The notes: generated by a model not told the origin, from the letters alone. 64,000 bases of DNA from Elusimicrobiota bacterium (GCA_043810025.1 JBDRON010000053.1:462-64461), one strand, 5' to 3'; positions 6,364-28,989 are shown, numbered from the stretch's first letter. Numbers and translations: made by a program.

Positions 6364-7587
6364 ATGTCTAAAGGAAAACTTTTGTTAGTTGGTCTGTTGA
6401 TGTCGTTTTTGTCCGCTAAGGCTTTGTTGGCTGAAGAAATAACGATATGGGCGATGGGCGCCGAAGGGATGAAAATCGCCGCGGTGGCCAGAAAGTTTGA
6501 AAAAGAAAATCCTGGAATCAGGGTAAAAACCCAAGCTATTCCATGGGAGGCCGCGCATGAAAAGTTGGTTATTGCGGTAGTGGGCGGGATACCGCCGGAT
6601 CTTGCCCAGCTGGGCACAACCTGGATGGCGGAATTTAAGGCGATGGATGCGCTCTCTCAACTGGATGATTTGGCCAAACAATCTAAAATTATTCAGGCGG
6701 ATAAATTTTTTTCGGGGTCCTGGAATACCTGTTTAATCAAAGATAAGTTGTATGGTGTGCCCTGGTATGTGGATACGCGGGTGCTCTTCTACCGGAAAGA
6801 TATTTTAAAAAAGGCGGGTTATGAAAAGCCTCCGGCAACCTGGGAAGAATTTAAAGAGCTTTGTCAGGCCCTGGTCAAAGACCGGGGAAAAGAGAAAAAA
6901 TTTAGCATCGCTTTGCCGATAAAGGATTGGGGATCGGTTTCTTTGTTTATTTGGCAGAACGGCGGTGAACTTCTGGCCCCGCTGGATCCGAAATTTAAGG
7001 AAGCGGTTGTTTATTATAAGAGCTTTTTTGATGAAAAGTTAGCCCCGACTAAAGAATCGGCCGATGTTGATCTTTACCATGCTTTCTCTACGGGGTATTA
7101 TCCGATGTTTATTTCGGGACCCTGGACGATCGAGCAGTTAAGAAAGGGATTACCCGAACTCAACGATAAGTGGGATGTGGCCATGCTGCCCAAAAAACTT
7201 GCTCCCACTTCGTTTGTCGGCGGCTGTAATTTGGTTGTTTTTAAAGGCAGTAAGCATAAAGCTGCGGCCTGGAAGTTTATTGAATATTTAAGCCGGCCGG
7301 AGGCGCAAGTGGAGTGGTATAAAAACACTACCGATCTCCCGTCTTTAAAGTTGGCCTGGAAAGATCCTTATATTCAATCCCAGCCAAACATCAAGGTTTT
7401 TGAAGAACAGATGAAATTCACCAAAAGTCCTCCCGCTTTGCCGGAATGGGAACAGATTGCCGATGCTTTGCAAAACCGGATGGAGCAGATGATTTTGAAT
7501 AAAAAAACTATCGATGCAGGTTTAAAAGCTTTTGACGAAGATCTTCGGGAAATAATCCCGGAGTATTTTAAAAATGAGAAAAAATAA
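6364..7587 (+). CDS. ABC transporter substrate-binding protein, family 1 (sugar/oligosaccharide)
   Basis: Signal peptide, 407 aa, MalE/UgpB-like architecture. Followed by two permease genes. Confidence 0.85.
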   Translation: MSKGKLLLVGLLMSFLSAKALLAEEITIWAMGAEGMKIAAVARKFEKENPGIRVKTQAIPWEAAHEKLVIAVVGGIPPDLAQLGTTWMAEFKAMDALSQLDDLAKQSKIIQADKFFSGSWNTCLIKDKLYGVPWYVDTRVLFYRKDILKKAGYEKPPATWEEFKELCQALVKDRGKEKKFSIALPIKDWGSVSLFIWQNGGELLAPLDPKFKEAVVYYKSFFDEKLAPTKESADVDLYHAFSTGYYPMFISGPWTIEQLRKGLPELNDKWDVAMLPKKLAPTSFVGGCNLVVFKGSKHKAAAWKFIEYLSRPEAQVEWYKNTTDLPSLKLAWKDPYIQSQPNIKVFEEQMKFTKSPPALPEWEQIADALQNRMEQMILNKKTIDAGLKAFDEDLREIIPEYFKNEKK

Positions 7588-7596
7588 AATAGAACT

Positions 7597-7725
7597 GTTC
7601 CCCCTTTTGAAAGGGGGATGAAGGGGGATTTTAAAATATTGATCAAATCTCCCCTACCCCTCTTTTTAAAGAGGGAAAAAAACGTCACAGATAGGTAAAG
7701 TTCCGAGCGAAGCTCGGACTAACTT
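7597..7725 (+). repeat. mosaic multi-hairpin intergenic element, copy 1
   Basis: Four consecutive stem-loops: TTCCCCCTTTTGAAAGGGGGA; GGGGGATTTT..AAAATCTCCCC; CCCCTCTTTTTAAAGAGGG; CCGAGCGAAGCTCGG, then GACTAACTT. Confidence 0.7.
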
Positions 7726-7756
7726 AAACCTTAAACCTGCTGTATGAAGGACTAAA

Positions 7757-8653
7757 GTGATCTCAAAAATTGCGCGGTTTATTAAAGCTTATTATATTGG
7801 ATATTTATTTATCGCTCCAGCCTTGATAATTTTAGCTGTCTTTTTGTTTTTTCCGATCGTTCAATCTTTCCTGATGAGTCTTACCGATTACAAAATAACC
7901 AGTATGCACGATGTGCATTTTATCGGGATAAAAAATTATCTGAAGCTCTTTCAAGATCAGATATTTTTGCAATCGCTTTTAAACACCGCCTATTTTGTCT
8001 TTGTGGGCGCGCCTTTAAGCATGGTTGTATCTTTGTTTATGGCGGTAATTCTGAACGAAAAATTCATAAAATATAAAACTTTTTTTCGGGCTTCGTTTTT
8101 TGCTCCGGTCGTGACGACAGTTGTGGCTGTAGCCGTTATTTGGCGCTGGCTTTATCAACCGGATTATGGCTTGTTTAACTGGGCGCTGCGGACAGTGGGG
8201 ATTAATCCGGTTAACTGGTTGTCCGATGTCCGGTTCGCCATGCCTTCCTTAATTTTGATGTCCGTCTGGAAAGGGTTCGGTTACAATATGATTATTTTTA
8301 TCGCCGGATTGCAGACGATCCCCGAGACTTTATATGAATCCGCCCGGATTGACGGAGCCAACTGGTGGAAATGTTTCCGTTACATCACCTTGCCGGGGTT
8401 GCGCCATACAATACTATTTGTCACAATTATGACTACTATCGGGTTTTTTCAATTTTTCGGCGAGTCGTATGTGATGACCAAAGGCGGTCCGTTAAACAGC
8501 ACTATTTCCATCGTTTATTATATGTATAACCAGGGTTTTAAATTTTTCAATTTAGGTTATGCCTCAGCGATCGCTTATGTTTTGTTCGGCTTAATTTTCA
8601 GTTTCACGATGATCCAATTATGGCTACGGCCAAAATATTCCGGAGAAGACTAA
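7757..8653 (+). CDS. ABC sugar transporter permease (MalF/UgpA type)
   Basis: Six TM helices and the EAA-like motif (ESARIDGAN). GTG start. Confidence 0.85.
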   Translation: MISKIARFIKAYYIGYLFIAPALIILAVFLFFPIVQSFLMSLTDYKITSMHDVHFIGIKNYLKLFQDQIFLQSLLNTAYFVFVGAPLSMVVSLFMAVILNEKFIKYKTFFRASFFAPVVTTVVAVAVIWRWLYQPDYGLFNWALRTVGINPVNWLSDVRFAMPSLILMSVWKGFGYNMIIFIAGLQTIPETLYESARIDGANWWKCFRYITLPGLRHTILFVTIMTTIGFFQFFGESYVMTKGGPLNSTISIVYYMYNQGFKFFNLGYASAIAYVLFGLIFSFTMIQLWLRPKYSGED

Positions 8654-8812
8654 GATATCAAAGATCAAAAATCAAAGATCAAAATTTAAAGGCAAAATAT
8701 ATAATTAATATTAAGTACTAAGAAGATAGACTACAGAAAGAAAAGTGAGATGCATTTCCAAATTCGATGGCTGTTGGTCTTTTTAATTTTGATATTTGAA
8801 CTTTGATATTTT
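8654..8812. mobile_element. MITE-like insertion with terminal inverted repeats built from ATCAAAG heptamers, lying between the two permease genes
   Basis: Left end gatatcaaagatcaaaaatcaaagatcaaaattt. Right end aattttgatatttgaactttgatatttt, the reverse complement of the left. Roughly 160 bp, AT-rich, no ORF. The two permease genes are normally adjacent. Confidence 0.45.
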
Positions 8813-9649
8813 ATGACCCGTTACCGTTTATATACGATAATCCGAAATAGCCTTATTTATCTCTTCCTGATTTTAGGGATCGCGGTTACTTTAGCGCCCT
8901 TTGTTTGGATGTTTTTGACTTCTTTTAAATCCAGCGGGGGTATCTTTGCCTACCCTCCCGAATGGCTGCCCAAGCATCCTACTTTTGCCCATTACCAAAA
9001 GCTTTTTTCTGAGATCAAGTTTTTCCTGCATTTAAAAAATAGTCTGATTGTGGCGATTTCGGCCACAGTGATTAATTTGTTTTTAAGTTCAATGGCCGGT
9101 TTTGCCTTCGCCAAATATAAATTTCCCGGCCGGGAAAAGATTTTTACTTTTCTTCTAGCTTCGATGATGATCCCCGGACAAGTGACGATGATGCCGATAT
9201 TTTTATTGCTGAAAAAGTTCGGTTTACTGAACACCTATTTTGGCTTGATTGCCACCGGCGCGGTCAGCGTCTTCGGCATTTTTCTGATTCGCCAGTTTAT
9301 GATCAGTATCCCCAACGACCTCATCGAGTCCGCCCGGATTGACGGTTGTTCGGAGTTTAGAATTTACTGGAATATAATGCTGCCTTTATGCAAACCGGTG
9401 CTGGCCACCCTGGGAATCTTTTCTTTTATGGGCGCCTGGAACGATTTTCTCTGGCCGTTGATTGTGATGATTACCGAGGATATGTATACCTTGCCGGTGG
9501 CTCTGGCTAACCTTAACGGACAGTTCCCCACAGAGTTTGGGCTGTTAATGGCCGGCGCGGTAGTTGTTGTAGCGCCGATTTTGTTAATTTTTATTTTCGC
9601 CCAGAAATTTATCATCAAGGGCATCGCCACCACGGGATTAAAAGAATAA
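8813..9649 (+). CDS. ABC sugar transporter permease (MalG/UgpE type)
   Basis: Six TM helices and ESARIDGCS EAA motif. Confidence 0.85.
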   Translation: MTRYRLYTIIRNSLIYLFLILGIAVTLAPFVWMFLTSFKSSGGIFAYPPEWLPKHPTFAHYQKLFSEIKFFLHLKNSLIVAISATVINLFLSSMAGFAFAKYKFPGREKIFTFLLASMMIPGQVTMMPIFLLLKKFGLLNTYFGLIATGAVSVFGIFLIRQFMISIPNDLIESARIDGCSEFRIYWNIMLPLCKPVLATLGIFSFMGAWNDFLWPLIVMITEDMYTLPVALANLNGQFPTEFGLLMAGAVVVVAPILLIFIFAQKFIIKGIATTGLKE

Positions 9650-9653
9650 AAAA

Positions 9654-12146
9654 ATGAACATGGCGCTGGAAGCAGGCAAGTTTGTTTTGAATGGTCATCC
9701 TTTTTTTATTTATTCCGGGGAGATCCATTATTTTCGGATTGCGCCGGATAAATGGCGGCTGCATCTGCAGAAAGCAAAAAAAGCCGGCCTGAATACGGTT
9801 AGTTCTTATATCCCCTGGATCTGGCATGAACCGGAGGAAGGGAAATTTGATTTTTCCGGTCAAACCCATCCCCAGCGCAATTTAAAAAAATTTCTTCAGT
9901 TGGTGGAAGAGATGGGTTTGTATTTTATTCCGCGGGTCGGTCCGATTTCCAACGCCGAATTGGTTAACGAAGGTTTGCCGGCCTGGCTGTTAAAAAAACA
10001 TCCGGAAATTTATTCTGCGGGAAGCGGGATTATTAATCTGCCGCATGTGACTATTTTATCTTACCTGCATCCTGTTTTTCATGAATATGTTGAAAAATGG
10101 TACAGAAAAGTCCTGCCGATTATTCAAGAAAACCAACTGAGCGCCGGTGGGCGGATGATCCTGCTTCAGCTCTGTAACGAAATCGGGATGGTGGCCTGGG
10201 TCAACAAATGCGGTGATTACAACCCAAACACCGACAAACTTTATCGGCAGTTCCTCAAAGATAAATATCAAAAAATAGATTTTCTTAATCAGGCCTGGAA
10301 GACCAGTCATGCTAATTTTGATCAGCTAATTCAACCGCGGGAAGAAACTACCGGCAAAAATTTCCAGATGTTTTTCGACTGGGCGTTGTTTTATCGCAAT
10401 TATTATGCTTCTTACTTCGCCTCTTTAACCCGGCTGGTTAAGGAGAAAGAAATTACTCTGCCTTTGATTGCCAATATTCCGCAGTTTTACGATTTCGATG
10501 TGCGCGGCCGCGGTGTTTACAGCCCGATGACCACCTCGTTTTACCGCAATTTCCCTGATTATGTCGGTCCGGTAGTGATGGGGGGGGCCTATCAGATGCG
10601 CCGGCTGGATTACGAAAATTTTCATGATATTTCCATTACCACCGAGGCGGTGAGAATGACCAGCCAGTTAAGCCCGCCCGCAGATTTTTACCCGATAAAA
10701 TTAAATCACAAGAATTTTAACGATGCGCTAATTTCTCAGGAAGCGGGAGATACCGATCAATATGTGGAACTGCCCGTTTTTTGCGCTGAACTGCAGTTTG
10801 GAATTATGCGCGACCGTCCTCGTCTTTACCCCAGCGATGTGGAACTAAATTTAAAGACCTCGACCGCTCACGGACTGAACGGATTGAACGGTTATATGTT
10901 TTCCGGCGGGGTAAATCTGCCGGAGTTGGCAGCCTTTGGCCGTTATCATGAATGGCAGGCGCCGGTTTCTTCCACCGGTGAGGAGCGGGACCATTTCCGT
11001 CCGATTCAGGAATTCGGCCGGTTAATCAAAACCTACGGGCAAAAACTTGCCCAAACCAAGAAATTTTCCGATACCGCTCTCGGTTTTTATCTGCCCTATT
11101 TTACCAGCGAATTTTTACATGGTAAATGGGTGGAGCTGTTGGAGGCAAAAAGGAACGGTCTTTTCTTTGACGGGATAGCCCGTCTTCTGCAGTTGGCCGG
11201 CTTAAATTTTTCGATGGTCGATATCCAAAGAGCTTCCTTAAATAAACTGTTGGAATATCCCCGGTTGTGGGTTTTCTCGCTGGAGTTTATGGACCGCGTA
11301 ACTCAAAAAAAATTGACCGACTATGTTAAAGCCGGCGGGATTTTAATCCTGAATCCGGAGCTGCCGGTAAAGGATTTGACCGGGGAAAAAGAGACCTATC
11401 TGGCCGAAGAATTTTCTTTCAATAAATTAGAAAAAATTGCCGGCGCGACTGTCCAATTAAAAGATAAAGGCCCGGTCAAAGATTGCTATGTTTCCGGGGA
11501 TATCTCTGTTTTTCATAGTCCGGAGTCCCAGGTGCTAGCCGAGAGTTCCAGCGGTCATTCCTGCGCGATGATGAAAAAAATTGGCAAAGGTAAATTAATG
11601 TTCTTAGGGTTTGGGTTGTCCCATATTTATGATTATCAGGTCGATTTGGTTAAATCTTGGGCGGCAAAATTGGGGCTCCAACCCAAAATTACTGTCCAGC
11701 CGGCGGACATTCAGGCCGTCTTGCGCAGCGGAGAAGATTTTGCTTTCCTTTTCCTGTTTAATTATCACCAGGTGAGCAAGGAAGTAAAAGTGTCGTTTTC
11801 CCTGGACGGTTCAAAAACGGTTTATCGCCTGCCCGGCAAGAAAAAAATAGTTTTAGAACCAAATCGCGGCTATCTGTTGCCGATAAATTTAAAATTGGAT
11901 GAAGAGTATCGGATCAATTACTCTACCCTGGAAATTTTATCTTTCCAGAAAAAGCCGAAAGAATTAATCCTCCATCTGCGCCAGACCACTCTTCCCACAT
12001 GGGCGGAGATCAGTTTCAACTCCACCCGCTTGCCAAAAAAAGTAAAAGTTGACGGACAACCCGTTAGTTTTAAACGTCAAGGGCAAAATTTCCTCATCTC
12101 TTTTACGGCTCCCGCCGGAACAAAAGAACTTCGGTTACAGTTTTAA
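9654..12146 (+). CDS. glycoside hydrolase family 35-like beta-galactosidase
   Basis: 830 aa. The N-terminus (FVLNGHPFFIYSGEIHYFRIAPDKWRLHLQKAKKAGLNTVSSYIPWIWHEPEEGKFDFSG) matches the conserved GH35 catalytic-domain entry pattern. Confidence 0.7.
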   Translation: MNMALEAGKFVLNGHPFFIYSGEIHYFRIAPDKWRLHLQKAKKAGLNTVSSYIPWIWHEPEEGKFDFSGQTHPQRNLKKFLQLVEEMGLYFIPRVGPISNAELVNEGLPAWLLKKHPEIYSAGSGIINLPHVTILSYLHPVFHEYVEKWYRKVLPIIQENQLSAGGRMILLQLCNEIGMVAWVNKCGDYNPNTDKLYRQFLKDKYQKIDFLNQAWKTSHANFDQLIQPREETTGKNFQMFFDWALFYRNYYASYFASLTRLVKEKEITLPLIANIPQFYDFDVRGRGVYSPMTTSFYRNFPDYVGPVVMGGAYQMRRLDYENFHDISITTEAVRMTSQLSPPADFYPIKLNHKNFNDALISQEAGDTDQYVELPVFCAELQFGIMRDRPRLYPSDVELNLKTSTAHGLNGLNGYMFSGGVNLPELAAFGRYHEWQAPVSSTGEERDHFRPIQEFGRLIKTYGQKLAQTKKFSDTALGFYLPYFTSEFLHGKWVELLEAKRNGLFFDGIARLLQLAGLNFSMVDIQRASLNKLLEYPRLWVFSLEFMDRVTQKKLTDYVKAGGILILNPELPVKDLTGEKETYLAEEFSFNKLEKIAGATVQLKDKGPVKDCYVSGDISVFHSPESQVLAESSSGHSCAMMKKIGKGKLMFLGFGLSHIYDYQVDLVKSWAAKLGLQPKITVQPADIQAVLRSGEDFAFLFLFNYHQVSKEVKVSFSLDGSKTVYRLPGKKKIVLEPNRGYLLPINLKLDEEYRINYSTLEILSFQKKPKELILHLRQTTLPTWAEISFNSTRLPKKVKVDGQPVSFKRQGQNFLISFTAPAGTKELRLQF

Positions 12147-12159
12147 GATAATGTATAGT

Positions 12160-12360
12160 AATTCCAATGTTGTTGAAGTGTTTCTCCTTTGAAATGTGTT
12201 GTAGGGAACGGTCGCGACCGTTCCTTTGTGTGTTCCCCCTTTTGAGGGGGACTGAGGGGGATTTTAAAATATTGACAAAATCTCCCCTACCCCTCTTTAT
12301 AAAGAGGGAAAAAAACGTCACAGATAGGTAAAGTTCCGAGCGAAGCTTGGACTAACTTGG
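12160..12360 (+). repeat. mosaic multi-hairpin element, copy 2, with a nested REP-like palindrome (12201-12225)
   Basis: Head AATTCCAATGTTGTTGAAGTG, then GTAGGGAACGGTCGCGACCGTTCC, then the four-hairpin body ending GGACTAACTTGG. Confidence 0.7.
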
Positions 12361-12390
12361 CGGCAGTCATCCCTGTTCCTTTTAAAATTT

Positions 12391-13032
12391 ATGCAATGTA
12401 GGAAACAACGTCCCCTAAGTTTATTTTTCCTCATTTTTTTGCACTCCGCTGGGACAGTTTTTTGTTTGGGCAAAAAAACTGAACCGTTGCCGGCAGAAAT
12501 TTTAATTGTGGACGACTTCAATAACGGTCCCGCAGGAACCAATAATTTAGGCGGTGAACGCGGGGTTTGGGTGGACAAGCCTGAAGCGATGGACAGCGAC
12601 TGTGTGGTATCGTTTGACAGGAAGGATAAAGTAGGCCGGCAAGGATATTCTTTACAGTTAAGTTATACGGTGGATAGTTTGCGTCCGTCGGCCAACGGTT
12701 ACTGGACAAAATTAAACGGTTTGGACGCGCGTGGCTATCGCTGGCTTGTTTTGTCTGTTAAAGGCAATCCCAAAACCAAGTTCACTACACAATTAAAGAT
12801 TGAGCTAAAAAATCAGGATCAAATCGGGGTTTATGAAATCAAGGAAATAACCAGGCGCTGGAAAAAAATTATTATCCCCTTAAATCAGTTTGCCGGCATC
12901 ACCCGATTCGACAACCTCACCGAGCTAACCATAGATTTCGAAAAAAATTTCGTTACTTCCCTTAAAGGCGAACTAAACATCGACAACATCTACTTTTCCA
13001 CTGAAGAAAACCCTGCTGCAAATTTGCGTTGA
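12391..13032 (+). CDS. secreted hypothetical protein, possibly carbohydrate-binding-module-like
   Basis: Signal peptide and a beta-rich composition. No confident family assignment. Confidence 0.4.
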   Translation: MQCRKQRPLSLFFLIFLHSAGTVFCLGKKTEPLPAEILIVDDFNNGPAGTNNLGGERGVWVDKPEAMDSDCVVSFDRKDKVGRQGYSLQLSYTVDSLRPSANGYWTKLNGLDARGYRWLVLSVKGNPKTKFTTQLKIELKNQDQIGVYEIKEITRRWKKIIIPLNQFAGITRFDNLTELTIDFEKNFVTSLKGELNIDNIYFSTEENPAANLR

Positions 13033-13058
13033 CACGCCTGTATTATATTTTGTATAAT
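13029..13058 (+). promoter_or_regulatory. sigma70-like promoter of lexA (TTGACA-18-TATAAT, TG-extended) overlapping an AT-rich inverted repeat ATTATA-N5-TATAAT
   Basis: TTGACA at 13029-13034, TGTATAAT at 13051-13058, ATG at 13067. Confidence 0.5.
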
Positions 13059-13066
13059 TTAGTATA

Positions 13067-13678
13067 ATGTTAACCAAAAAAGAAATTGATACGATTAAAC
13101 ATATTCGAAACTTTCTTGTTCACGAGGGCGAAATGCCGACCTACCGTAAACTTATGGCGGCTTTGGGCTACAAATCTCCGCGGTCAGTTACTTTGTTGGT
13201 TAATCAACTAATTAAGAAAAAAATATTAAAGAAAACTTCTAATGGAAGAATACGGATGTTAAATTACTCGGAAGAGAATAACGGCCAGGCCCAAACAATA
13301 AGCGTTCCTTTGCTCGGGCGGATAGCCTGCGGCCGGCCTTTGCTGGCCGAAGAAAATATCGAAGGAATGATCCCTGTTTCGATTAAGTTAGCCCGTCTGC
13401 CGCACAAATATTTTTTGTTAAAAACCAAAGGTGATTCCATGAATGAAAAAGGAATCAATGACGGCGATTTGGTTTTGGTCAGACAGCAGAATACGGCAAA
13501 CAACGGGGACTTAGTTGTTGCTTTAATTGATGGAGAATCAACAATAAAAGAATTCATCAAGTCGGAAGGCGCAATTATCTTGAAACCCCGTTCCTCAAAC
13601 AAGAACCACAAACCGATTATTTTGACCCAAGATTTTCAAATCCAGGGGATTGTCGTTTCAGTGATAAAAGGATTGTAG
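13067..13678 (+). CDS. lexA: LexA repressor (S24 peptidase)
   Basis: N-terminal winged HTH. C-terminal autocleavage module with the catalytic Ser in GDSM and the Lys ([14 protein letters not shown]). Confidence 0.9.
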
Positions 13679-13748
13679 GATTGCCGGGTGTGCCAAAATT
13701 ATTAGACAGCAAAAAGGGAAAAAAATACAAAAATTGATAGGAGGGGGT

Positions 13749-14252
13749 ATGTCGAATAATATTTTTGAACAGATCAAGAAAGTTAACGAGTATGGCCAAG
13801 AGTACTGGAGCGCCAGAGCTCTCTGTACATTATTAGGATATACCGAATATGGTAAATTTCTGCCGGCGATAGAAAGAGCTAAAGAATCTTGCAAAAACAG
13901 CGGGCAAAAGATTGATGATCATTTCGCTGGCGTGAGCGATATGATAACTATCGCTACCGGGACCCCCAAAGAAACTCAGCGGCCTGTAGATAACTATCGT
14001 CTTTCCCGGTATGCCTGTTACCTGATTGCGCAAAACGGAGATCCTCGTAAAGAAGAGATAGCAATAGCTCAAACTTACTTCGCAATTCAAACACGGAAAC
14101 AGGAAGTTCACCAACAGCTAATCGAAGATAATAAGCGCGTACATCTGCGCAATGAAATGAAAACGCATAATAAACAGTTAGCTCAAGCGGCCAAAGAAGC
14201 CGGTGTAATTAATTATGCTAATTTTCAGGACTACGGATATTTGGGAGGGTAA
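13749..14252 (+). CDS. DNA-damage-inducible protein D (DinD) family, truncated paralog (N-terminal two-thirds only)
   Basis: Matches E. coli DinD from the FWSAR motif through NKQL..AGV ([13 protein letters not shown]...[16 protein letters not shown]...[12 protein letters not shown]) but stops after about 170 aa. ATG at 13749 with a GGAGGGGG RBS. Lies 70 bp downstream of lexA. Confidence 0.8.
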
Positions 14253-14255
14253 ACA

Positions 14256-15113
14256 ATGAGTCATTTAATAGCAAAAGAATATAAATCATTTGAAGAGATA
14301 AAGCATCTTTCGGAGGATGGCCATGAATTTTGGTATGCCCGTGAGCTGGCCATGGTACTTGAATATGTGCAATGGCGTAATTTCGTGAAAGTTTTGGAAA
14401 GGGCAATGCTTGCTTGCAAAAACAGCGGGTATGCGGTTCTGGATCATTTTGCTGAGGTCAGCAAAACGATAAATATGCCTAAAACTGCTACTAAAGAAGT
14501 TGTTGATTTTAGACTCACTCGGTATGCCTGTTATTTAATTGTTCAAAATGGAGACCCACGAAAAGAAGTTATTGCATTGGGGCAAACCTATTTTGCCATT
14601 CAAACCAGGCGGCAGGAAGTAGCCGATTACTTTAATCAACTTGATGAGGATAACAAGCGTTTGGTAATAAGGGGCGATATTAAGCAATGGAACCAGATGC
14701 TTGCCGAGGCCGCTCACAATGCGGGTGTTATGAGCGATGAGGAATATGCCGCTTTTCAGAATGCTGGTTATATGGGGTTGTATGGCGGAATGAAGGTCGA
14801 GGATATTCATAAAAAAAAGGGGATAAGGAAAAACGACCGGGTTCTTGACTTTATGAGCAGTACAGAGTTAATTGCAAATTTATTTAGAATATCTCAGACT
14901 GAAGAAAAATTAAAAAAAGATACAACAGCAACTGCTGATGCTGCTAATGAAATACATTTTATCGTTGGGAAAGAGGTTCGAGGCACGATTGAACGAGTGG
15001 GCGGCACAATGCCGGAAGATTTGCCCACTCCAGACAAAAGTATCAGTGATGTTGAGCGAAAACAGTTAAAAAAACTTAAAAATTCTCCAAAAAAATTAAT
15101 GCTTGATGAATGA
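14256..15113 (+). CDS. dinD: DNA-damage-inducible protein D (DinD) family, full length
   Basis: Collinear with E. coli DinD over its whole length, including the C-terminal STELIANLFRISQTEEKLKK...GTMPEDLPTP. RBS lies within the 3' end of the upstream paralog. Confidence 0.85.
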   Translation: MSHLIAKEYKSFEEIKHLSEDGHEFWYARELAMVLEYVQWRNFVKVLERAMLACKNSGYAVLDHFAEVSKTINMPKTATKEVVDFRLTRYACYLIVQNGDPRKEVIALGQTYFAIQTRRQEVADYFNQLDEDNKRLVIRGDIKQWNQMLAEAAHNAGVMSDEEYAAFQNAGYMGLYGGMKVEDIHKKKGIRKNDRVLDFMSSTELIANLFRISQTEEKLKKDTTATADAANEIHFIVGKEVRGTIERVGGTMPEDLPTPDKSISDVERKQLKKLKNSPKKLMLDE

Positions 15114-15342
15114 TGAGCAACTGGAATGAGGTCGTTCGTGGTCAATATTGAACCGCAATCAGGAAAAACTGTGGTGTCCAGCGATAATTTTCTTGGTGAG
15201 AAAAAGAGAAAACAGCTAGATTAAATACTTCCGATTGACTTGACAATATTTAACTAATAAAATGCTTTATATTATTGCATAAAGTAGCCAGAAAATCGGG
15301 AGTCTTCCTTCAATTAAGAAATTAAATAGAAAGAGGTGTTGA

Positions 15343-15633
15343 ATGCAGAATTTGCTTAACGAATTAACCGAACTGCTGGCCAAAGATGAACGGCTTGTTG
15401 TTGAAGGGAAGCTGCTAAAGAATAAAATCATTGAGCTTGCTCTGGGGATGGATGCGGACTTAATCAAGCTTCTCTTGAAAAACAAAAGCATTAAGAAGCA
15501 TTTTTTTGCAGAAGCGGGAGATGTGCTTGTTTTCGATAAAATCAAATTTCAGCATTTCGTTTCCAATAAAGAATTTCTCCCCGACAGTTACACCGCTTTT
15601 AAGAATAAGATCGGCCTGATGAACGAACGATAA
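15343..15633 (+). pseudogene. N-terminal remnant of a restriction-modification-type DNA methyltransferase (Mod-like)
   Basis: The 96-aa ORF ...KKHFFAEAGDVLVFDKIKFQHFVSNKEFLPDSYTAFKNKIGL resembles the N-terminal leader of type III/IIG adenine methyltransferases. No catalytic domain follows. Assigned from recalled similarity only. Confidence 0.3.
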
Positions 15634-15840
15634 GATGGCTGGGTATTTGTAAGGAGCTGGGATTATAATCTGACGCAAACCATTCCTCATGGCTGGCAAG
15701 AGATCGAGATTAAGGATTTTCTTAAATTTACTCTGAAAAGATGATAGCTATTGCCGGGATTTACCAATGAATAGTTTCTTAATCTGAGAATAGTGGTTGC
15801 TTGGAAAATTTGACAAAAAACCTCTTCATATTTTTGACTT

Positions 15841-15868
15841 TGTACGGAACGGTCGCGACCGTTCCGCA
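15841..15868. repeat. REP-like palindrome TGTACGGAACGGTCGCGACCGTTCCGCA
   Basis: Perfect 28-bp palindrome. Member of the GGAACGGTCGCGACCGTTCC family. Confidence 0.7.
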
Positions 15869-15954
15869 CTATACCATCTCGGGTATGCTCGCACCTTTCG
15901 GGTACAAAAATATTTTGCTGTTTTACGTTTCGGTTTTTTGGCTGGCCATCCATA

Positions 15955-15983
15955 TTGACTCTAAATTTAAAATAATCTAAAAT
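15955..15983 (+). promoter_or_regulatory. candidate promoter for the cas operon (TTGACT-17-TAAAAT)
   Basis: Sequence motifs only. Lies about 170 bp upstream of cas3. Confidence 0.3.
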
Positions 15984-16154
15984 AATATATACAATTACAG
16001 GATAATGTCCAATTTCAGGGAGAGGTTGTAAATGCCCCAAAAGATTGCTCATGTAAAACAAAATGCCATGGTTCATGGGCGCCCGCTCATAAACTTTCTG
16101 ACCATTTACAAGGCGTTGCCGAAAGGGCATTCTTATCAAGGAGCAGGTTAAGAA

Positions 16155-18647
16155 ATGAATAATCTACAGAAATGTATTGCTCATCGCGGAAAAAATGGTT
16201 CAATACAAACCCTTGAATGTCATCTGGAGGAAGTATCTGATAAAACAGGTAAATTTGCTGCGAAGATTGGATTAAAAGAACAGGGAGAATTGATAGGCCT
16301 TTTACATGATATCGGAAAAGCAAGCGAGGAATTTCAGAGATATATTCAATCGGCAACAGGTTTGATCAATTCTGATGAAGACGATTATGTTGATACATCA
16401 GGGATGAAAGGTAAAATTGACCATTCCAGTGCTGGGGCACAAATAATTGCGCGGCACCTTTTAGATAAAGGGAACGAGACTGTTTTTGCCAAACAGTTAT
16501 TATCATTGTGCATTGCGTCTCACCATTCAGGGCTAATTAATTGTATCGCACCTGATGGTACCGATGTGTATTCAAAAAGAATGTCAAAACCGACGGACAA
16601 AACTCATTTTGATGAAATATATTCGAAGATTGATGATGCGCAACGCAAGAGAATAGAACAAGCATTACAATCAAAGGATATTACCAAAACTTTAAAAGAT
16701 CAGCTTAATAATTTGTGTGAAAAAAACAGGGATTCAAAAGAAACATTGATGTTCAAATATGGTTTGATGGTACGGTTTCTTTATAGTTGTCTAATAGATG
16801 CTGACCGATTAAGTACAGCTGATTTTGATTATCCGGCAACAGCAAAAATCAGAAATAACGGTAACTATATTTCTTGGAGCGAATTGATTAAACGATTCAG
16901 AGTGAAATTACGAAGCTTTAAGGGCAAAAAAAATACAATTGACAAATTGCGGCAGAATGTATCAGACCACTGCCGTGAATTTGCCGATAAACCGAAAGGT
17001 CTGTATCAATTAACCGTCCCGACTGGCGGAGGAAAAACACTGTCCAGCCTGCGTTTTGCGTTGCATCACGCCCAAGCGCATGGGATGGACAGGATAATGT
17101 ATGTTTTGCCCTACACAACCATAATAGACCAGAATGCCGATGAAGTTAGGCAGATTCTTGAAGATAAAGATGAGACCGGAAAATACGCTGGGCGGGTTGT
17201 TCTGGAACATCATTCAAACCTAACTCCCGATGAAGAAACTGTACAACAAAAAGTACTTGCCGAAGATTGGGATGCCCCAGTAGTCTTTACGACTGTTGTA
17301 CAGGTTTTGGATGCCTTGTTCGGTTCAGGAACGCAGACTGCGCGCCGTATGCACCAGCTGGCAGATGCAGTGATAATATTTGATGAAGTCCAATCTCTTC
17401 CTATTAAATGCGTTCAAATGTTTAACTTGGCGATCAGATTTTTAGTTCATAACTGCGGCTCAACAGTTGTGCTTTGTACGGCTACCCAACCGCTTTTAAA
17501 TCAAATAAAGCCGGAATCCAGGGCTTTGACGATTGCTCCTAATCAACAGATAATACCAGACATTCAAAAACTATTCAAGGATTTAAAACGTGTTAAAGTT
17601 ATTGATCGATGTAGAGTTGAGAAATGGAACTTAACCGATATAAAAATATTGATTGCCCAAGAACTAAAAATAGCAGGCAGTGTTTTAGTAATAGTGAACA
17701 CAAAGAAAGCGGCAAGAGAAATTTATCAGCAATGCAATAACGATATGCAAGCAAAAGTATATCATTTAAGCACTTATATGTGTCCGGCGCATCGTACGGA
17801 GAAATTGAGAGAAATAACAGCAGGTTTAGAAAATTTAAAGAATAACGAACCGAATAAAGAGCCGATTATTTGCGTAAGCACTCAGCTTATTGAGGCGGGT
17901 GTTGATATTGATTTTGGAGCGGTCATTCGTTCGCTGGCCGGTCTTGATTCTATGGCGCAAGCCGCTGGCCGGTGCAACAGACATAATGAACGAGGTGAAC
18001 CTGGCAGAGTTACAATAATAAATCCGGTAAACGAAAATATTGATGAAATAAAAGAAATTAGGATCGGGAGAGAAAAGGCCGAACGCGTTCTTGGCGAATA
18101 TAAAAAGAACCCCGATATTTTTGATAGAGATATTCTAGGACACAAAGCAATAGAATGTTATTATCAGTATTATTTTTATGACAGAACAAATGACATGAAT
18201 TATCCCGTCAGCAGTAAGTCAGTTGTAAAAAGAAATGACAATTTGTTCATTTTGCTTTCCACAAATACGACTTCTATTGGAGAGTATAAGCGTATCAATA
18301 AAGTATTTCCAGCAATCCCTTTAAGATACTCGTTTATGGCGGCAGCAAAAACTTTTAATGTAATTGATTCGCCCGCGCGTGGTATTGTTGTGCCTTACGG
18401 ACAAATGGGACGGGAAATAATCAACAAACTTTGTTCCGCGTTCGATATTGAGAAACAATACCTTCTTATAAAGGAGGCACAACGATATTCTGTAAATTTA
18501 TTTGAAAATGATTTAAAGAAATTGGGTTGTGCTGTTTGTGAAGTTCAAAAAGGGTCAGGGATTTTATATCTTGACGAGCGTTATTACAGCGATGACTTTG
18601 GGATAAGTGAAAAACCGGTAAACGAGATGGGGTTACTAAACCGCTGA
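16155..18647 (+). CDS. cas3: Cas3 HD-nuclease/helicase, type I-C
   Basis: N-terminal HD motifs (H..HDIGK, SHHSG). DEAD/DEAH helicase motifs (GGGKT, DEVQ). C-terminal domain. 830 aa. Confidence 0.92.
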   Translation: MNNLQKCIAHRGKNGSIQTLECHLEEVSDKTGKFAAKIGLKEQGELIGLLHDIGKASEEFQRYIQSATGLINSDEDDYVDTSGMKGKIDHSSAGAQIIARHLLDKGNETVFAKQLLSLCIASHHSGLINCIAPDGTDVYSKRMSKPTDKTHFDEIYSKIDDAQRKRIEQALQSKDITKTLKDQLNNLCEKNRDSKETLMFKYGLMVRFLYSCLIDADRLSTADFDYPATAKIRNNGNYISWSELIKRFRVKLRSFKGKKNTIDKLRQNVSDHCREFADKPKGLYQLTVPTGGGKTLSSLRFALHHAQAHGMDRIMYVLPYTTIIDQNADEVRQILEDKDETGKYAGRVVLEHHSNLTPDEETVQQKVLAEDWDAPVVFTTVVQVLDALFGSGTQTARRMHQLADAVIIFDEVQSLPIKCVQMFNLAIRFLVHNCGSTVVLCTATQPLLNQIKPESRALTIAPNQQIIPDIQKLFKDLKRVKVIDRCRVEKWNLTDIKILIAQELKIAGSVLVIVNTKKAAREIYQQCNNDMQAKVYHLSTYMCPAHRTEKLREITAGLENLKNNEPNKEPIICVSTQLIEAGVDIDFGAVIRSLAGLDSMAQAAGRCNRHNERGEPGRVTIINPVNENIDEIKEIRIGREKAERVLGEYKKNPDIFDRDILGHKAIECYYQYYFYDRTNDMNYPVSSKSVVKRNDNLFILLSTNTTSIGEYKRINKVFPAIPLRYSFMAAAKTFNVIDSPARGIVVPYGQMGREIINKLCSAFDIEKQYLLIKEAQRYSVNLFENDLKKLGCAVCEVQKGSGILYLDERYYSDDFGISEKPVNEMGLLNR

Positions 18648-18664
18648 TCAAAAGGAAGGTTCTT

Positions 18665-19393
18665 ATGGAAAAAGAAAACAAAGCAGAGTTCAAAGTATCA
18701 GGCAAGTATGCACTTTTTACCGACCCGCTTACAAAAATTGGCGGAGAAAAATGTTCTTATCATATTCCCACTTATGAGGCATTGAAAGGAATCATTAGTT
18801 CTGTATACTGGAAACCGACTATTGTTTGGATTATTGATAAGATCAGAGTTGTTAGCCGCATACGCACTCAGACCAGAAGCACAAAACCGCTTGATTTTAA
18901 CGGCGGCAATTCTCTTGCTATTTATACTTATCTTGCTGATGTGGAATACCAGGTACAGGCGCATTTTGAGTGGAACTTACATCGTCCTGATTTGGAAAAA
19001 GATAGAAACGAGAATAAACATTTTTTTGTTGCACGGCGCATGATAGAAAAAGGCGGTAGGAGGGATATTTTTTTAGGTGCCCGGGAATGTCAAGGATATG
19101 TAGAACCATGCAAATTCGGCGAGGGTAAAGGTGATTATGATGGTTATGGTGAGTTGGCTTTTGATTTGATGTTTCATGGTTTTGATTACCCTGATGAATC
19201 GGGTAAAGACGAGCTTTATGCGAGATTTTGGAAAAACATCAAAATGATAGATGGTGTAGTTAAGTTTCCGTATCCAGGGGAATGCACGATTAGAAAATTT
19301 GTAAGGCCGATGAAAGCCCAGACTATGCAAACAAGCGGATTAAAAGAAGAGGGGTTGCTTGAAAGTTATGTTGAGTCGGAGGTGGCGCAATGA
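18665..19393 (+). CDS. cas5: Cas5c (Cas5d) type I-C
   Basis: 242 aa. Conserved Cas5c N-terminus (KVSGKYALFTDP...SYHIPTYEALKGI). Confidence 0.9.
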   Translation: MEKENKAEFKVSGKYALFTDPLTKIGGEKCSYHIPTYEALKGIISSVYWKPTIVWIIDKIRVVSRIRTQTRSTKPLDFNGGNSLAIYTYLADVEYQVQAHFEWNLHRPDLEKDRNENKHFFVARRMIEKGGRRDIFLGARECQGYVEPCKFGEGKGDYDGYGELAFDLMFHGFDYPDESGKDELYARFWKNIKMIDGVVKFPYPGECTIRKFVRPMKAQTMQTSGLKEEGLLESYVESEVAQ

Positions 19394-21552
19394 GTTGGAT
19401 CCACAGATTGTATGAGACTTATGAAAACTGCCGCGCAATGATTGGTAAAATAGAGGATGATAGTAAAGTACCGCTTCTGCCGATATGCCACACAACGCAA
19501 AAAGCTCAGATTGAAATTATCATTGATGAGAAAGGTAATTTCCAACGCGCACGGCTCGTTCCAAGAGAACAGGCGAGAACCATTATCCCCTGTACCGAAG
19601 CGTCCGGTGGACGCACCAGGGGCGAAGCCCCTCATCCTTTGTGCGATAAATTGCAATATATTGCGGCCGATTTTAAGAAATTTACTGGCGAGGATTCGTA
19701 TTACTTTGCCATGATTGCTGAAGATGATTTTAAAACATTTGGAAAGAAAGATGAGTTGAAGTATTTGATTGAAGGGCTGCACAAGAGCGGTTATATTGAT
19801 AACGCTGGAATAATTCAATCAAGTTTTAATGTACTGAATAATGTCCATGAGCTACATATAGATAAATCATGGGAAAAGAAAAAAGATAAAATCTATGGAA
19901 AACTACTTGAGAAAAATAATAAAGCTTACAGTAACCTTTTGTCTGATTGGTGTAAACCTGAGCATGCACATCGGAAGGCTACGGCTGTTTTTAAATATGT
20001 TCAAAAAGGCGGTGTCATCAAGGATTTAATTGATCATAAAATATTGCATGTTGATGCTGATGGAATATTGCTAAAAAAACGGGCGGAAAAGAAGGACGGT
20101 GAGGTAAAAGACATTTTTGATTTGCTTCCGGGAAGAGAAAACAAAAAAAATGGTAAATTTGAAAATTGGCAGGCGGATGCTTTTATCCGCTGGGAAGTTG
20201 AAATACCAAATGATGTTTGTTCGAAAGCATGGGAAGACAAAACATTGCGGGATAGCTGGATTAAGTTTTATTCAGGAACAAAACAGAATAAAATACTTTG
20301 TTATGTGACAGGCGAAAAACAATTTCCTGCCGATCAGCATCCAGCTAAGTTAAGAAATGATGGAGATAAGGCGAAGCTGATTTCTTCCAATGATTTGTCA
20401 GGGTTTACTTTTCGCGGGCGGTTCACAGAGGCTGAACAGGTTTGTGCTATTGGTTTTGAAGTGACTCAAAAATCTCACAGTGCGTTGCGATGGCTTATCA
20501 GCCGGCAGGGCAATGTTTTTTTTGAAGGGAAAGGTATTAATAAAAAACCGAAATTAACTATCGTAGCTTGGTCAACTGTAGGAAAGCAGATACCAAAGCC
20601 AATGGATGATTCTTTTGACATGTTGGGTGTTTGTGAATTGGTTAGTGATGAAAAGGAAGTTGCTGCTACTGCTCAGTACCTCGCGTTAAAATTGAAGAAA
20701 AAAATCGCGGGATACAAAGCAGATTTGGGCACAACTGATTCTATTGTTGTCATGGGGCTTGATTCTGCGACACCAGGCCGCATGGCAATAACATATTACC
20801 GTGAATTGACAGGTTCAGATTTTCTTGATCGTTTAGACCACTGGCATGAATCCTGCGCATGGATTCACGATTACCATTTCGTTGAAGAAAAGTATATCCG
20901 GTTTGTCGGTGCGCCTGCGCCAAAGGATATAGCTGAGGCAGCCTACGGAAGCAAATCTGATGATAAATTAAAGAAGACTACCGTTGAACGTCTTCTGCCG
21001 TGCATTATAGAAGGCCGTCCGCTTCCCAGAGATATTGTGGAGTCAGCTGTTAGAACGGCTTGTAAACGCTTGGCCATGGATGAATGGAAGTGGAACAAAA
21101 CTCTAAGTATTGCTTGTGCATTATACAAAAAATATTGCGAAAAGGAGGATTACATTATGTCGTTAGAACATGAGCGTAAAACAAGAGATTATTTGTATGG
21201 GAGATTGCTTGCCGCTGCGGACTGCATGGAGAAATTCGCGTTGTTTATTTCTGAAAAAAAGCGTGACACGAACTCCGCGAGATTGATGCAGCGTTTTTCC
21301 GATCGTCCTTGTAGTACATGGAAAATTATAGAACTTTCTTTAGCATCCTATAAAGCGAGACTGGGCGGTAGAGCAAAGAAATACACTGATGTTATTGATG
21401 CGGTTATGAATAAGTTCGACCCACCAGAAGATTTTATAAGTGATAAACCATTGAGCGGTGAATTTTTGTTGGGATATCATTGCCAGAGAGAAAATTTGAA
21501 ACCAAAGAAGGACGAACCGGAAAGCGTAGAGGATGCCGTTGTAGTGGAATAA
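19390..21552 (+). CDS. cas8c: Cas8c (Csd1) large subunit, type I-C
   Basis: 720 aa, in the cas5-cas8c-cas7 position. Start overlaps the cas5 stop. Confidence 0.85.
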   Translation: MSWIHRLYETYENCRAMIGKIEDDSKVPLLPICHTTQKAQIEIIIDEKGNFQRARLVPREQARTIIPCTEASGGRTRGEAPHPLCDKLQYIAADFKKFTGEDSYYFAMIAEDDFKTFGKKDELKYLIEGLHKSGYIDNAGIIQSSFNVLNNVHELHIDKSWEKKKDKIYGKLLEKNNKAYSNLLSDWCKPEHAHRKATAVFKYVQKGGVIKDLIDHKILHVDADGILLKKRAEKKDGEVKDIFDLLPGRENKKNGKFENWQADAFIRWEVEIPNDVCSKAWEDKTLRDSWIKFYSGTKQNKILCYVTGEKQFPADQHPAKLRNDGDKAKLISSNDLSGFTFRGRFTEAEQVCAIGFEVTQKSHSALRWLISRQGNVFFEGKGINKKPKLTIVAWSTVGKQIPKPMDDSFDMLGVCELVSDEKEVAATAQYLALKLKKKIAGYKADLGTTDSIVVMGLDSATPGRMAITYYRELTGSDFLDRLDHWHESCAWIHDYHFVEEKYIRFVGAPAPKDIAEAAYGSKSDDKLKKTTVERLLPCIIEGRPLPRDIVESAVRTACKRLAMDEWKWNKTLSIACALYKKYCEKEDYIMSLEHERKTRDYLYGRLLAAADCMEKFALFISEKKRDTNSARLMQRFSDRPCSTWKIIELSLASYKARLGGRAKKYTDVIDAVMNKFDPPEDFISDKPLSGEFLLGYHCQRENLKPKKDEPESVEDAVVVE

Positions 21553-21582
21553 TGTAATAAAAATCTAAAAGGAGGATTATTT

Positions 21583-22524
21583 ATGTCGGAAAACAAGTCA
21601 GAGTCTTTGAAAAACAAAATTGATTTTGCAGTAGTGTTTGGTGTTAAAAATGCGAATCCTAATGGTGATCCGCTTAATGGGAACAGACCACGGGTGAATT
21701 ATGATGGTTACGGAGAGGTTTCAGATGTTTGTATAAAGAGAAAAATCAGAAATCGTCTCAAAGATTTGGGATGCAAGATTTTTGTGCAATCCGATGACAA
21801 TCGGGATGATGATTGCCGTAGTCTTAAAGAGAGGGCAGACAAGATACTCGCTGATGTTATGGGTGACGAGAAGAAATTGCGTGAAAAGGCATGCGCAGAA
21901 TGGATTGATGTTAGGGCGTTTGGACAATTGTTTGCTTTTAAAGCTGATAAAAAAAGCAAAAAAATTAAGAAAAATTCCGAAGTTGAAACTGAATCTCAAG
22001 AGTCTGGTGTTTCCATCGGAATTAGAGGTCCTGTTTCTATTCATTCAGCATTTAGCGTTATTAGCGTAAATGATCGTGTGGAGAGTATTCAAATCGTAAA
22101 GAGTGTTAGTGGAGAAGGAGATGGTAGTAAGCGTGGTTCCGATACTATGGGGATGAAACACCGTGTTGATCATGGCGTATATGTATTTTTTGGAACCATG
22201 AACACTCAGCTTGCCAGTAAAACTGGGTTTAGTGATAGTGATGCAGAATCAATTAAGAAGGCATTGCAAAGTATGTTCCAAAATGATGCATCGTCTGCAC
22301 GGCCTGACGGAAGCATGGAGATATTGAAAGTTGTCTGGTGGAAGCACAATTGTCCGCATGGCCAATACTCATCTGCACAGGTTCACCGGTCATTAAAAGT
22401 AGAGGTTAAAAAAGATGTCGTTGATCCAAAAAGTTTTGATGATTATGATATTAAAGTTGACGATCAGAAAACACCGGGTTTGGAGTACAAACCTCTATTA
22501 GATGGGGCTATCTTTGTGAACTAA
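21583..22524 (+). CDS. cas7: Cas7 (Csd2) type I-C backbone subunit
   Basis: 313 aa. N-terminal FAVVFGVKNANPNGDPLNGNRPR motif typical of Csd2. Confidence 0.9.
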   Translation: MSENKSESLKNKIDFAVVFGVKNANPNGDPLNGNRPRVNYDGYGEVSDVCIKRKIRNRLKDLGCKIFVQSDDNRDDDCRSLKERADKILADVMGDEKKLREKACAEWIDVRAFGQLFAFKADKKSKKIKKNSEVETESQESGVSIGIRGPVSIHSAFSVISVNDRVESIQIVKSVSGEGDGSKRGSDTMGMKHRVDHGVYVFFGTMNTQLASKTGFSDSDAESIKKALQSMFQNDASSARPDGSMEILKVVWWKHNCPHGQYSSAQVHRSLKVEVKKDVVDPKSFDDYDIKVDDQKTPGLEYKPLLDGAIFVN

Positions 22525-22646
22525 TGTCCGTATATAATGTTTTCCAAAGACGACTTGCTCTCAATATCCAGCCTGCAACATATCATTTTCTGTTTCCGGC
22601 AGTGCATGATACATTTCAATCGTCTTGGAAGAAAGGAGTGATTTTT

Positions 22647-27748: not shown

Positions 27749-27769
27749 CGCAGGGGAGAAAGGAGATTT

Positions 27770-28870: not shown

Positions 28871-28894
28871 TGTGTAGAAACCTTAAAGAATGCA

Positions 28895-28970
28895 GGTCAT
28901 GAGTCATGGGTTATGAGCTTAAAAGAGTCGAATGTTTTAGACTCAAGGCTCATGACTCAAAACCCAAGAC
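28895..28970. repeat. copy 2 of the gtcatgagtcatgggttatgagctt palindromic element
   Basis: Shares about 25 bp with 3425-3460, and the aagctcat..gac return arm. Confidence 0.55.
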
Positions 28971-28989
28971 TTGTTTTGGCACTTAAAAT

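Follow-up and report, generated by a model that had tools for sequence, protein, structure and literature searches.

What controls a pair of dinD genes that lies directly behind lexA and close to a CRISPR-Cas operon, and how did such an arrangement arise? The question is raised by a 64,000-nucleotide stretch of DNA from an Elusimicrobiota bacterium (GCA_043810025.1 JBDRON010000053.1:462-64461; the whole stretch is called the window here, and its coordinates are used throughout), in which lexA, a 3′-truncated dinD (dinD-short) and a full-length dinD (dinD-full) form a series of three co-oriented genes at 13.0–15.1 kb. The start of cas3 (position 16155), part of a type I-C cas operon, lies 1,041 nucleotides past the stop codon of dinD-full. 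The original prediction for this locus had described tandem dinD genes after lexA, the first of them truncated, 1 kb from the cas genes; both genes and the truncation are real. The prediction that the window departs from the Escherichia coli arrangement is likewise supported, as E. coli dinD stands apart from lexA under an SOS box of its own and the gene behind lexA in that species is dinF.

The comparisons described below suggest that this locus is probably a self-repressed lexA operon with a leaderless mRNA, wherein transcriptional read-through would express horizontally acquired DinD cargo after LexA cleavage. The same reading treats the locus as one case of a clade-wide pattern in which interchangeable, mostly defence-type cargo resides behind lexA. 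The features of the operon, including open reading frames (ORFs) and ribosome-binding sites (RBSs), are as follows.

13029–13034, plus strand: −35 hexamer TTGACA, overlapping the stop codon of the upstream ORF 12391–13032; part of a 12/12 promoter match
13039–13068, plus strand: candidate LexA operator with three direct (T)GTAT repeats, from comparative repeats and a position weight matrix (PWM) consensus
13053–13058, plus strand: −10 hexamer TATAAT, 8 nucleotides ahead of the lexA ATG
13067–13678, plus strand: lexA, 203 amino acids, with a winged-helix DNA-binding domain and an S24 self-cleaving domain (TIGR00498, Peptidase_S24)
13749–14252, plus strand: dinD-short, 167 amino acids, with a Bro-N domain and following helices (partial match to NF008573)
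14242–15117, plus strand: dinD-full cassette (RBS and ORF), with a coding sequence at 14256–15113 for 285 amino acids, a full-length DinD of the PDC-S13 class

The LexA protein of the window

The lexA product matches TIGR00498 at 164.8 bits (cut-off 110.95) and Peptidase_S24 at 6e-30, and its score of 23.2 bits for the Pfam model LexA_DNA_bind is just short of the 23.7 cut-off. Its alignment to LexA structures from E. coli extends over the full length and places the catalytic Ser in a GDSM motif and the catalytic Lys in an IKEF motif. The cleavage site is Cys88-Gly89 (in IACG) in the window protein, whereas it is Ala84-Gly85 in E. coli; UmuD likewise has a Cys-Gly cleavage site. Ser124 and Lys161 are invariant among 40 LexA relatives. 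The winged helix, the S24 domain, the Ser/Lys dyad and the Cys-Gly site together identify the predicted product as a bona fide LexA, and the model match and the two catalytic residues bear out the earlier claim that the gene is intact.

LexA proteins from metagenome-assembled genomes (MAGs) labelled Elusimicrobiota, Bacteroidota, Scalindua and Omnitrophica are 57–65% identical, and the clade to which they belong has roughly 5,240 members. No member of this LexA clade was found at 50% identity or more in phage or plasmid collections, and the best phage LexA-like matches are at most 37% identical to the window protein.

A candidate operator fused to the lexA promoter

Upstream of lexA, TTGACA and TATAAT are separated by an 18-nucleotide spacer and constitute the sole 12/12 promoter match within positions 12000–16300, in agreement with the strong promoter originally proposed. 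The −10 box is not an extended −10 element. It ends 8 nucleotides before the lexA ATG and no RBS precedes that codon; for both reasons, the lexA mRNA is predicted to be leaderless.

An operator had been placed over the −10 box on account of an inverted repeat, ATTATA-N5-TATAAT. This repeat is present at 13042–13058 and, taken alone, is AT-rich and weak. Comparative data back the existence of an element that overlaps the −10 box, although this element is better described as a set of direct GTAT repeats than as the inverted repeat. In the window, these candidate repeats are TGTATTAT at 13039, TGTATAAT at 13051 (coinciding with the −10 box) and AGTATAAT at 13061, the last of which abuts the ATG.

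The comparison set comprised 80 metagenomic loci carrying LexA relatives at 48–64% identity, with a few more from an exact protein look-up; the loci are mostly without taxonomy and are not phylogenetically de-replicated. Nearly all of the related lexA loci share a single layout, consisting of a −35 box, GTAT or ATAC in the spacer, a TGTATA(A/C)T −10 box, a third TGTAT and the ATG; in about 60 loci the three (T)GTAT units of this promoter recur at a spacing of 10–12 nucleotides. Of 79 regions upstream of lexA, 54 contain GTAT-N5-8-GTAT, whereas shuffling of the sequences leaves 1.7 on average and 5 at most. Furthermore, the distance from the start of the TTGAC −35 element to the first in-frame ATG is 34–42 nucleotides in 48 of 61 loci, and the mode of 38 is also the value in the window. 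Loci that lack a TTGACA/TATAAT promoter (for example, L102, L127 and L182) still carry three GTAT repeats, which indicates that the repeats are more than a by-product of the −10 box. This clade-wide promoter architecture points to a leaderless, self-repressed lexA, and the window operator is the best match to the clade PWM in the 64-kb window.

The LexA box of Alphaproteobacteria is a direct repeat, GTTC-N7-GTTC. A direct-repeat LexA box has also been validated by electrophoretic mobility shift assay in Balneolaeota (TTACACATATTTTWTACATA; PMC7739468). Like these two boxes, the candidate operator consists of direct repeats spaced by about one helical turn and is not a palindrome. It is unlike them in having three (T)GTAT units, which merge with the −10 box and with the predicted start of a leaderless mRNA.

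Two side observations concern these motifs. In six loci (L102, L113, L118, L127, L138 and L182), TAnnTTTG-like elements replace TTGACA/TATAAT and three GTGTAT repeats are retained. We take these elements to resemble Bacteroidota promoters. Bacteroidota are reported to be without canonical LexA genes, and loci of the TAnnTTTG type would fit the acquisition of a canonical lexA by Bacteroidota. Separately, a tandem repeat at 52312–52335, located at the end of a coding region and comprising TATAAAGTGG twice plus a partial third copy (TATAgGGTG), is the source of a spurious GTAT-N6-GTAT match.

Operon structure and a model for control

No terminator-like site was found in the 70-nucleotide spacer between lexA and dinD-short. 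The only promoter-like match between lexA and dinD is a 9/12 match at 13734. The dinD-short ORF begins at ATG 13749, behind the RBS GGAGGGGG, and not at TTG 13734. Only 3 nucleotides separate the two dinD genes, such that the stop codon of dinD-short lies inside the RBS region of dinD-full. Co-transcription of the dinD genes from the lexA promoter is the simplest reading of this layout, and induction of the dinD genes by DNA damage through LexA would follow from their position in the operon.

If this model is correct, LexA binds the candidate GTAT repeats and blocks its own leaderless transcript. DNA damage, or DNA breakage induced by a phage, would stimulate LexA self-cleavage through RecA and release the block. 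The transcript would then read through the terminator-free spacer into dinD-short and on to dinD-full, whose translation would be coupled to that of dinD-short.

Cargo behind lexA in related loci

Across 61 related loci, lexA and its downstream neighbour point the same way, most gaps between them measure −4 to +20 nucleotides, and these first genes represent 32 families. The first gene encodes a DNA methyltransferase in 19 loci, DUF2188/PDC-S16 in 8, SMODS or SAVED in 7 and a Y-family polymerase in 3, whereas RecA, CinA, PycTM, Schlafen/AlbA, Bro-N and Vsr are represented by one locus each. Among the second and third genes are those for DpnII, TdeIII, R.Pab1, HaeIII and EcoRII nucleases and further SMODS genes, as well as a bacterial HORMA protein with an AAA ATPase, a 4TM effector, RecA, a DnaE-like polymerase and a single-stranded DNA-binding protein.

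Restriction-modification (RM) genes or genes of cyclic oligonucleotide-based antiphage signalling systems (CBASS) constitute 26 of 58 first downstream neighbours but 0 of 53 upstream neighbours (p = 1.5e-9); these counts are not independent events, because some of the 58 loci come from related lineages, and a single DpnII-like architecture, for instance, is shared by 9 of them. The upstream neighbours are mostly housekeeping genes, with a few toxins. Individual loci illustrate the pattern. In a Scalindua MAG, the cargo behind lexA encodes a methyltransferase together with a HinfI-type nuclease; in a 3.7-Mb genome, it is a pair of CBASS modules that include Cap15, and a type I RM system lies alongside; and in another related locus, it is SAVED and SMODS. 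An Omnitrophica MAG has lexA adjoining type IV secretion genes.

The best-supported reading of these data is that the slot 3′ of lexA in this clade holds interchangeable, mostly defence-type cargo, and that the window represents one instance of a wider rule. A literature search of the library available to us found no description of lexA-led defence operons; it did find one remark that some defence genes are under LexA in regulatory networks. The clade-wide variable defence cargo behind lexA appears new, at least to us.

Operons headed by lexA are familiar from lexA-dinF in E. coli and from the lexA-imuA-imuB-dnaE2 cassettes of Pseudomonas and other bacteria. Like these, the loci described here combine a lexA that is probably autoregulated with damage-response genes, in that some clade members carry a Y-family polymerase, RecA or a DnaE-like polymerase. 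Unlike these, most of the cargo comprises RM, CBASS, Pycsar-like, PDC-S13 and PDC-S16 genes, which appear to be swapped between lineages. We also observed that a small DUF2188 protein (PDC-S16; 73–97 amino acids) directly follows lexA in L097, L098, L101, L106, L107, L117, L123 and L132, and is a recurrent partner.

Probable separate origins of the two dinD genes

The dinD-full product matches the equivalog model NF008573 at 396 bits (cut-off 242) over positions 4–281 of 288 and passes as a full-length DinD. The dinD-short product matches positions 10–177 at 223 bits, which is below the cut-off for a full-length assignment. The two copies are 52% identical, whereas dinD-full encodes a protein that is 88–92% identical to those of Desantisbacteria, Methanoperedens (an archaeon), Lentisphaerae, Nitrospirota, Marinimicrobia and others. 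At the DNA level, dinD-full is 88.7% identical to the Desantisbacteria locus L001 over exactly 14242–15117, that is, over the RBS and ORF, and the flanking sequences are unrelated. This pattern marks dinD-full as a putative gene-sized cassette that was recently acquired by horizontal transfer.

The dinD-short gene is 50–55% identical to the cross-phylum relatives of dinD-full. Its own nearest relatives (81% and 67% identical) run past the position of its stop codon with the GLYGG...DIHQKKK sequence of full-length DinD. We therefore take dinD-short to be what is left of an older dinD that belonged to a different subclade and whose 3′ third would have been cut off by the incoming dinD-full cassette.

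A recent tandem duplication of dinD was considered and rejected, given the 52% identity of the copies and the far closer relationship of dinD-full to genes of other phyla. For the same reasons, together with the different subclade of dinD-short, the original suggestion of a lineage-specific expansion of the DinD family does not hold. Instead, the two dinD copies and the Bro-N gene embedded in the cas operon (described below) look like three independent horizontal acquisitions. Linkage of dinD to lexA is, as far as the dinD loci compared here indicate, special to the window locus. At two of the dinD loci outside the window, dinD directly adjoins a gene homologous to the cas-embedded Bro-N gene (L016, 6858–7733; L003, 6610–6954), so the two PDC-S13 subfamilies sometimes travel together.

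DinD as a candidate defence protein

DinD consists of a Bro-N DNA-binding domain and a helical C-terminal region. Both copies match the PADLOC model PDLC04919 (PDC-S13), dinD-full at 2e-110 and dinD-short at 6e-68, and both also match the N-terminal part of a PADLOC model for a type I specificity-subunit fusion. Because the cas-embedded gene belongs to PDC-S13 as well, the tie between DinD and defence that was originally proposed gains support. PDCs are defence candidates found through ‘guilt-by-embedding’ in BREX, DISARM or type I RM systems, and the validated ones among them are only seven Hma-embedded candidates (bioRxiv 10.1101/2024.01.29.577857). A literature search for ‘PDC-S13’ found no description.

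DinD homologues number more than 8,000, many of them 85–92% identical across phyla. Full-length copies occur in only 42 of 50,697 phage records, and Streptococcus phage satellites account for the majority of the best matches. No relatives of DinD were found by sequence in the PDB.

E. coli dinD (also called pcsA) belongs to the same NF008573 equivalog family, in which the window protein scores 396 bits, and also has the Bro-N domain; control by LexA would be expected for the window genes as well. In the window, such control would come through co-transcription with lexA, and the locus further differs in having two divergent copies, one of which is truncated and the other of which was probably acquired recently by horizontal transfer. 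The E. coli gene carries an SOS box (PMC6590174), and its product inhibits RecA filaments according to the summary of Uranga 2011 in a later article (reference 97 in PMC4457935). As that article cites it, this published activity means that the earlier statement that DinD has no established molecular function was too strong. Given membership in PDC-S13, and an E. coli homologue that is regulated by LexA and inhibits RecA, DinD in the window is most likely a damage-induced modulator of the recombinase or of DNA transactions, which would help to act against invading DNA or to reset the SOS signal.

The cas-embedded Bro-N gene and its surroundings

The remaining features of the neighbourhood are as follows.

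15343–15633, plus strand: N-terminal fragment of a type III RM methylase, 96 amino acids (PF12564, 1.8e-25; PADLOC MTase_III, positions 4–98 of 708)
16155–22524, plus strand: type I-C effector genes cas3 (16155–18647), cas5c (18665–19393), cas8c (19390–21552) and cas7 (21583–22524)
22537–22641, plus strand: remnant of a cas4 5′ end, 34 codons (70% DNA identity to the real cas4 start; 57% protein identity, E = 2e-9)
22647–23477, plus strand: cas-embedded Bro-N protein, 276 amino acids, second PDC-S13 subfamily (PDLC04920, 398 bits; Bro-N match)
23482–25034, plus strand: cas4 (23482–24036, 184 amino acids, with an internal deletion) and cas1 (ORF 23934–25034), which runs into the first CRISPR repeat
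25006–25238, plus strand: mini CRISPR array with four repeats of GTCGCGCCCCGTGCGGGCGCGTGGATTGAAAC and three spacers

The Bro-N gene lies between cas7 and cas4, with its true start at ATG 22647 and its end at 23477. The DinD-like gene that had been noted in the cas operon thus exists and belongs to the PDC-S13 family (PDLC04920, 4e-120), although BLASTP detects no similarity between it and DinD. The C-terminal part of dinD-full cross-matches PDLC04920 at 1e-12. A profile–profile comparison of the two Bro-N families gives a weak local match (E = 0.03), which is weak because both alignments are shallow, and the link between the families rests on the PADLOC models. By these measures, the cas-embedded gene would belong to the same broad family as DinD and to a distinct subfamily, related to it only at the level of family models.

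Homologues of this gene are 80–88% identical across phyla, which makes it as mobile and conserved as DinD. A homologue with 88% identity occupies the same cas7–cas4 slot of another type I-C operon (L163–L166), two further homologues lie directly ahead of a shortened solo Cas4 (126 and 171 amino acids) outside any cas operon, and one that is 56% identical directly follows lexA in L088. The window Cas4 (184 amino acids) is missing about 28 residues, including the GxxGKxDVVEF stretch of other type I-C Cas4 proteins. The recurrence beside cas4 suggests either that Bro-N and Cas4 form a functional pair or that the insertion is targeted to the cas4 5′ end. Like the PDC-S13 candidates that were flagged by embedding, the cas-embedded gene is co-oriented with, and nested in, a multi-gene system; it differs in that its host is a type I-C CRISPR-Cas operon and that it recurs specifically beside cas4. 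Embedding of this kind applies to the cas-embedded copy only, as the lexA-linked copies lie beside defence genes and not inside a system.

The first CRISPR repeat (25006–25037) contains the end of the cas1 ORF, at 25034; this ORF matches the Cas1c model to position 310 of 340. Neither cas2 nor a leader was found at the window array or cas operon, and the adaptation module looks to have been deleted or to have decayed. LexA control of the cas operon was considered and rejected, as no GTAT box lies ahead of cas3 or elsewhere in the window apart from the lexA operator.

Between dinD and cas3, the methylase fragment (the full protein has about 700 amino acids) represents a decayed defence gene, and a promoter-like site at 15235 belongs to it. 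On the other side of the operon, ORF 12391–13032 encodes a protein of 213 amino acids with a signal-peptide-like N terminus, and its stop codon overlaps the lexA −35 box; searches of Pfam, NCBIfam, PHROGs and PADLOC gave no match to the protein. Sugar-uptake genes flank both sides of the block that extends from lexA to the CRISPR array. Those upstream (6364–12146) encode a binding protein, two permeases and a GH35/42 glycosidase, and those downstream (25835–30252) encode a glucoamylase-like/CBM9 protein, a MalK-like ATPase and a binding protein. This 12-kb block may be an insertion into one sugar-uptake gene cluster. Rfam and tRNA scans of the 64-kb window were both empty.

A perfect 20-nucleotide, GC-rich palindrome, GGAACGGTCGCGACCGTTCC, occurs in intergenic regions at 12205–12224, 15846–15865, 38019–38038, 49385–49404 and 60162–60181, two of the five copies having 1–3 mismatches, and the chance expectation is none. 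A mobile unit bounded by the copies at 12205 and 15846, which flank the lexA–dinD module, was considered and rejected because copies are also found at 38019, 49385 and 60162. Dispersal over five sites indicates an element that resembles a repetitive extragenic palindrome or a terminator, and not a module boundary.

Points against the model and alternative readings

Several observations weigh against a LexA-controlled operon with defence-type cargo. The window operator is weak, scoring 13.8 bits with the clade PWM against a training minimum of 18.2, and the repeat signal partly coincides with the −10 box. Motif and PWM scans found no other GTAT box anywhere in the 64-kb window. In addition, recA, uvrA and other SOS genes were not identified among the annotated ORFs of the window, not every one of which was scanned, so support at the level of a regulon is missing. 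Every regulatory step in the model is inferred from sequence, and the related lineages among the 58 loci, noted above, also belong here.

Other points concern DinD itself. Across 80 dinD loci of other genomes, none has lexA within 6 kb, and conserved neighbours of dinD were not found among 141 neighbours, which represent 176 Pfam families. A Gram-positive-type SOS box (GAAC-N4-GTTC) is located ahead of dinD in 1 of 78 loci, which are mainly clostridial. Damage inducibility is therefore not a trait of the family, and the name ‘damage-inducible’ is inherited from E. coli. The assignment of PDC-S13 to anti-phage defence is itself a prediction. Finally, an AlphaFold model of DinD, made with a shallow alignment, has a mean predicted local distance difference test score of 57, and only the Bro-N domain is confident; because the C-terminal half is not modelled with confidence, the mechanism is unconstrained by it.

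One alternative is that this is an ordinary SOS module, in which a housekeeping lexA precedes a dinD whose product damps RecA filaments as RecX or DinI does, and the cas operon is nearby by coincidence. We regard this as unlikely, even though a good deal speaks for it. The E. coli family member is regulated by LexA and, as cited in PMC4457935, acts on RecA; dinD-full passes the DinD equivalog model; classic SOS genes follow lexA in a few relatives (3 loci with a Y-family polymerase, 2 with RecA and 1 with a DnaE-like polymerase); and neither the phage nor the plasmid collection contains the LexA clade at 50% identity or above. However, the 88–92% identity of dinD-full across distant phyla and an archaeon fits a mobile accessory gene and not a core repair gene, and its product matches a defence-candidate family and the N terminus of a type I specificity-subunit fusion model. 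Moreover, full-length DinD in the phage collection is concentrated in phage satellites, the genes next to dinD-full are those of a decayed type III methylase and of a cas operon, and RM and CBASS genes dominate the cargo behind lexA in relatives.

Somewhat less probable still is that the region 3′ of lexA is a neutral insertion sink, in which dinD and the other cargo use promoters of their own and are independent of LexA. Such a sink would accommodate the extreme variability of the cargo (32 families), the unrelated contexts in which DinD is found everywhere, the decay evident in the island (a methylase fragment, truncation of both a dinD and cas1, and the cas4 remnant) and the 9/12 promoter-like site at 13734. 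That site, however, overlaps the RBS and start codon of dinD-short, there is no terminator behind lexA, and the co-oriented cargo with its short gaps leaves little space for promoters. Nor would a neutral sink by itself readily account for the asymmetry of defence genes between the two sides of lexA.

A prophage remnant with a CI-like S24 repressor and a Bro-N anti-repressor (Ant) is largely refuted and extremely improbable. The S24 domain does match the phage repressor families phrog_4 and phrog_6201, and the cas-embedded Bro-N protein weakly matches Ant families through its Bro-N domain, but the repressor is a full-length LexA equivalog with a LexA-type winged helix instead of HTH_3 and is distant from its best phage matches, the DinD copies match only phrog_8036 (of unknown function) and no Ant families, and phage structural, integrase and replication genes and tRNAs are all absent nearby.

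Implications for SOS control and immunity

Regulators that make defence systems responsive to DNA damage have been described, namely CapH/CapP and the WYL regulators CapW and BrxR (bioRxiv 10.1101/2022.04.27.489752, PMC9122588, PMC9122601). Like these, the lexA of the present clade is a repressor gene located directly beside varied defence systems, whose expression it could couple to DNA damage. Unlike CapH/CapP, which pairs a helix-turn-helix protein with a metallopeptidase, and unlike the WYL proteins, the sensor here would be RecA-stimulated self-cleavage of LexA.

A broader and more tentative proposal, possible though doubtful at present, is that this LexA clade represents a mobile DNA-damage sensor with a leaderless, GTAT-operated promoter, which moves between phyla on defence islands or conjugative elements and places cassettes in its 3′ slot under RecA-dependent control. 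In favour are the 57–65% identity of LexA across four phylum labels, the copy beside type IV secretion genes, the location of the island between parts of a sugar-uptake cluster and the retention of operator repeats where the promoter type has changed. If true, the RM, CBASS, Pycsar-like, DinD/PDC-S13 and PDC-S16 cargo would provide immunity gated by the SOS response, and a newly arrived cassette would be expressed at a low, safe level.

For phyla that have received little study, Elusimicrobiota and Omnitrophota among them, the GTAT-repeat, leaderless lexA promoter offers a candidate SOS box. DinD is widespread, strongly conserved and moves freely between genomes, and its natural operon with lexA provides an experimental handle on its role. 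Immune systems that reside behind lexA may be wired to the canonical SOS sensor, such that LexA would join CapH/CapP and the WYL regulators as a coupler of damage and immunity, and lexA-led cargo would suggest how toxic defence cassettes are acquired safely.

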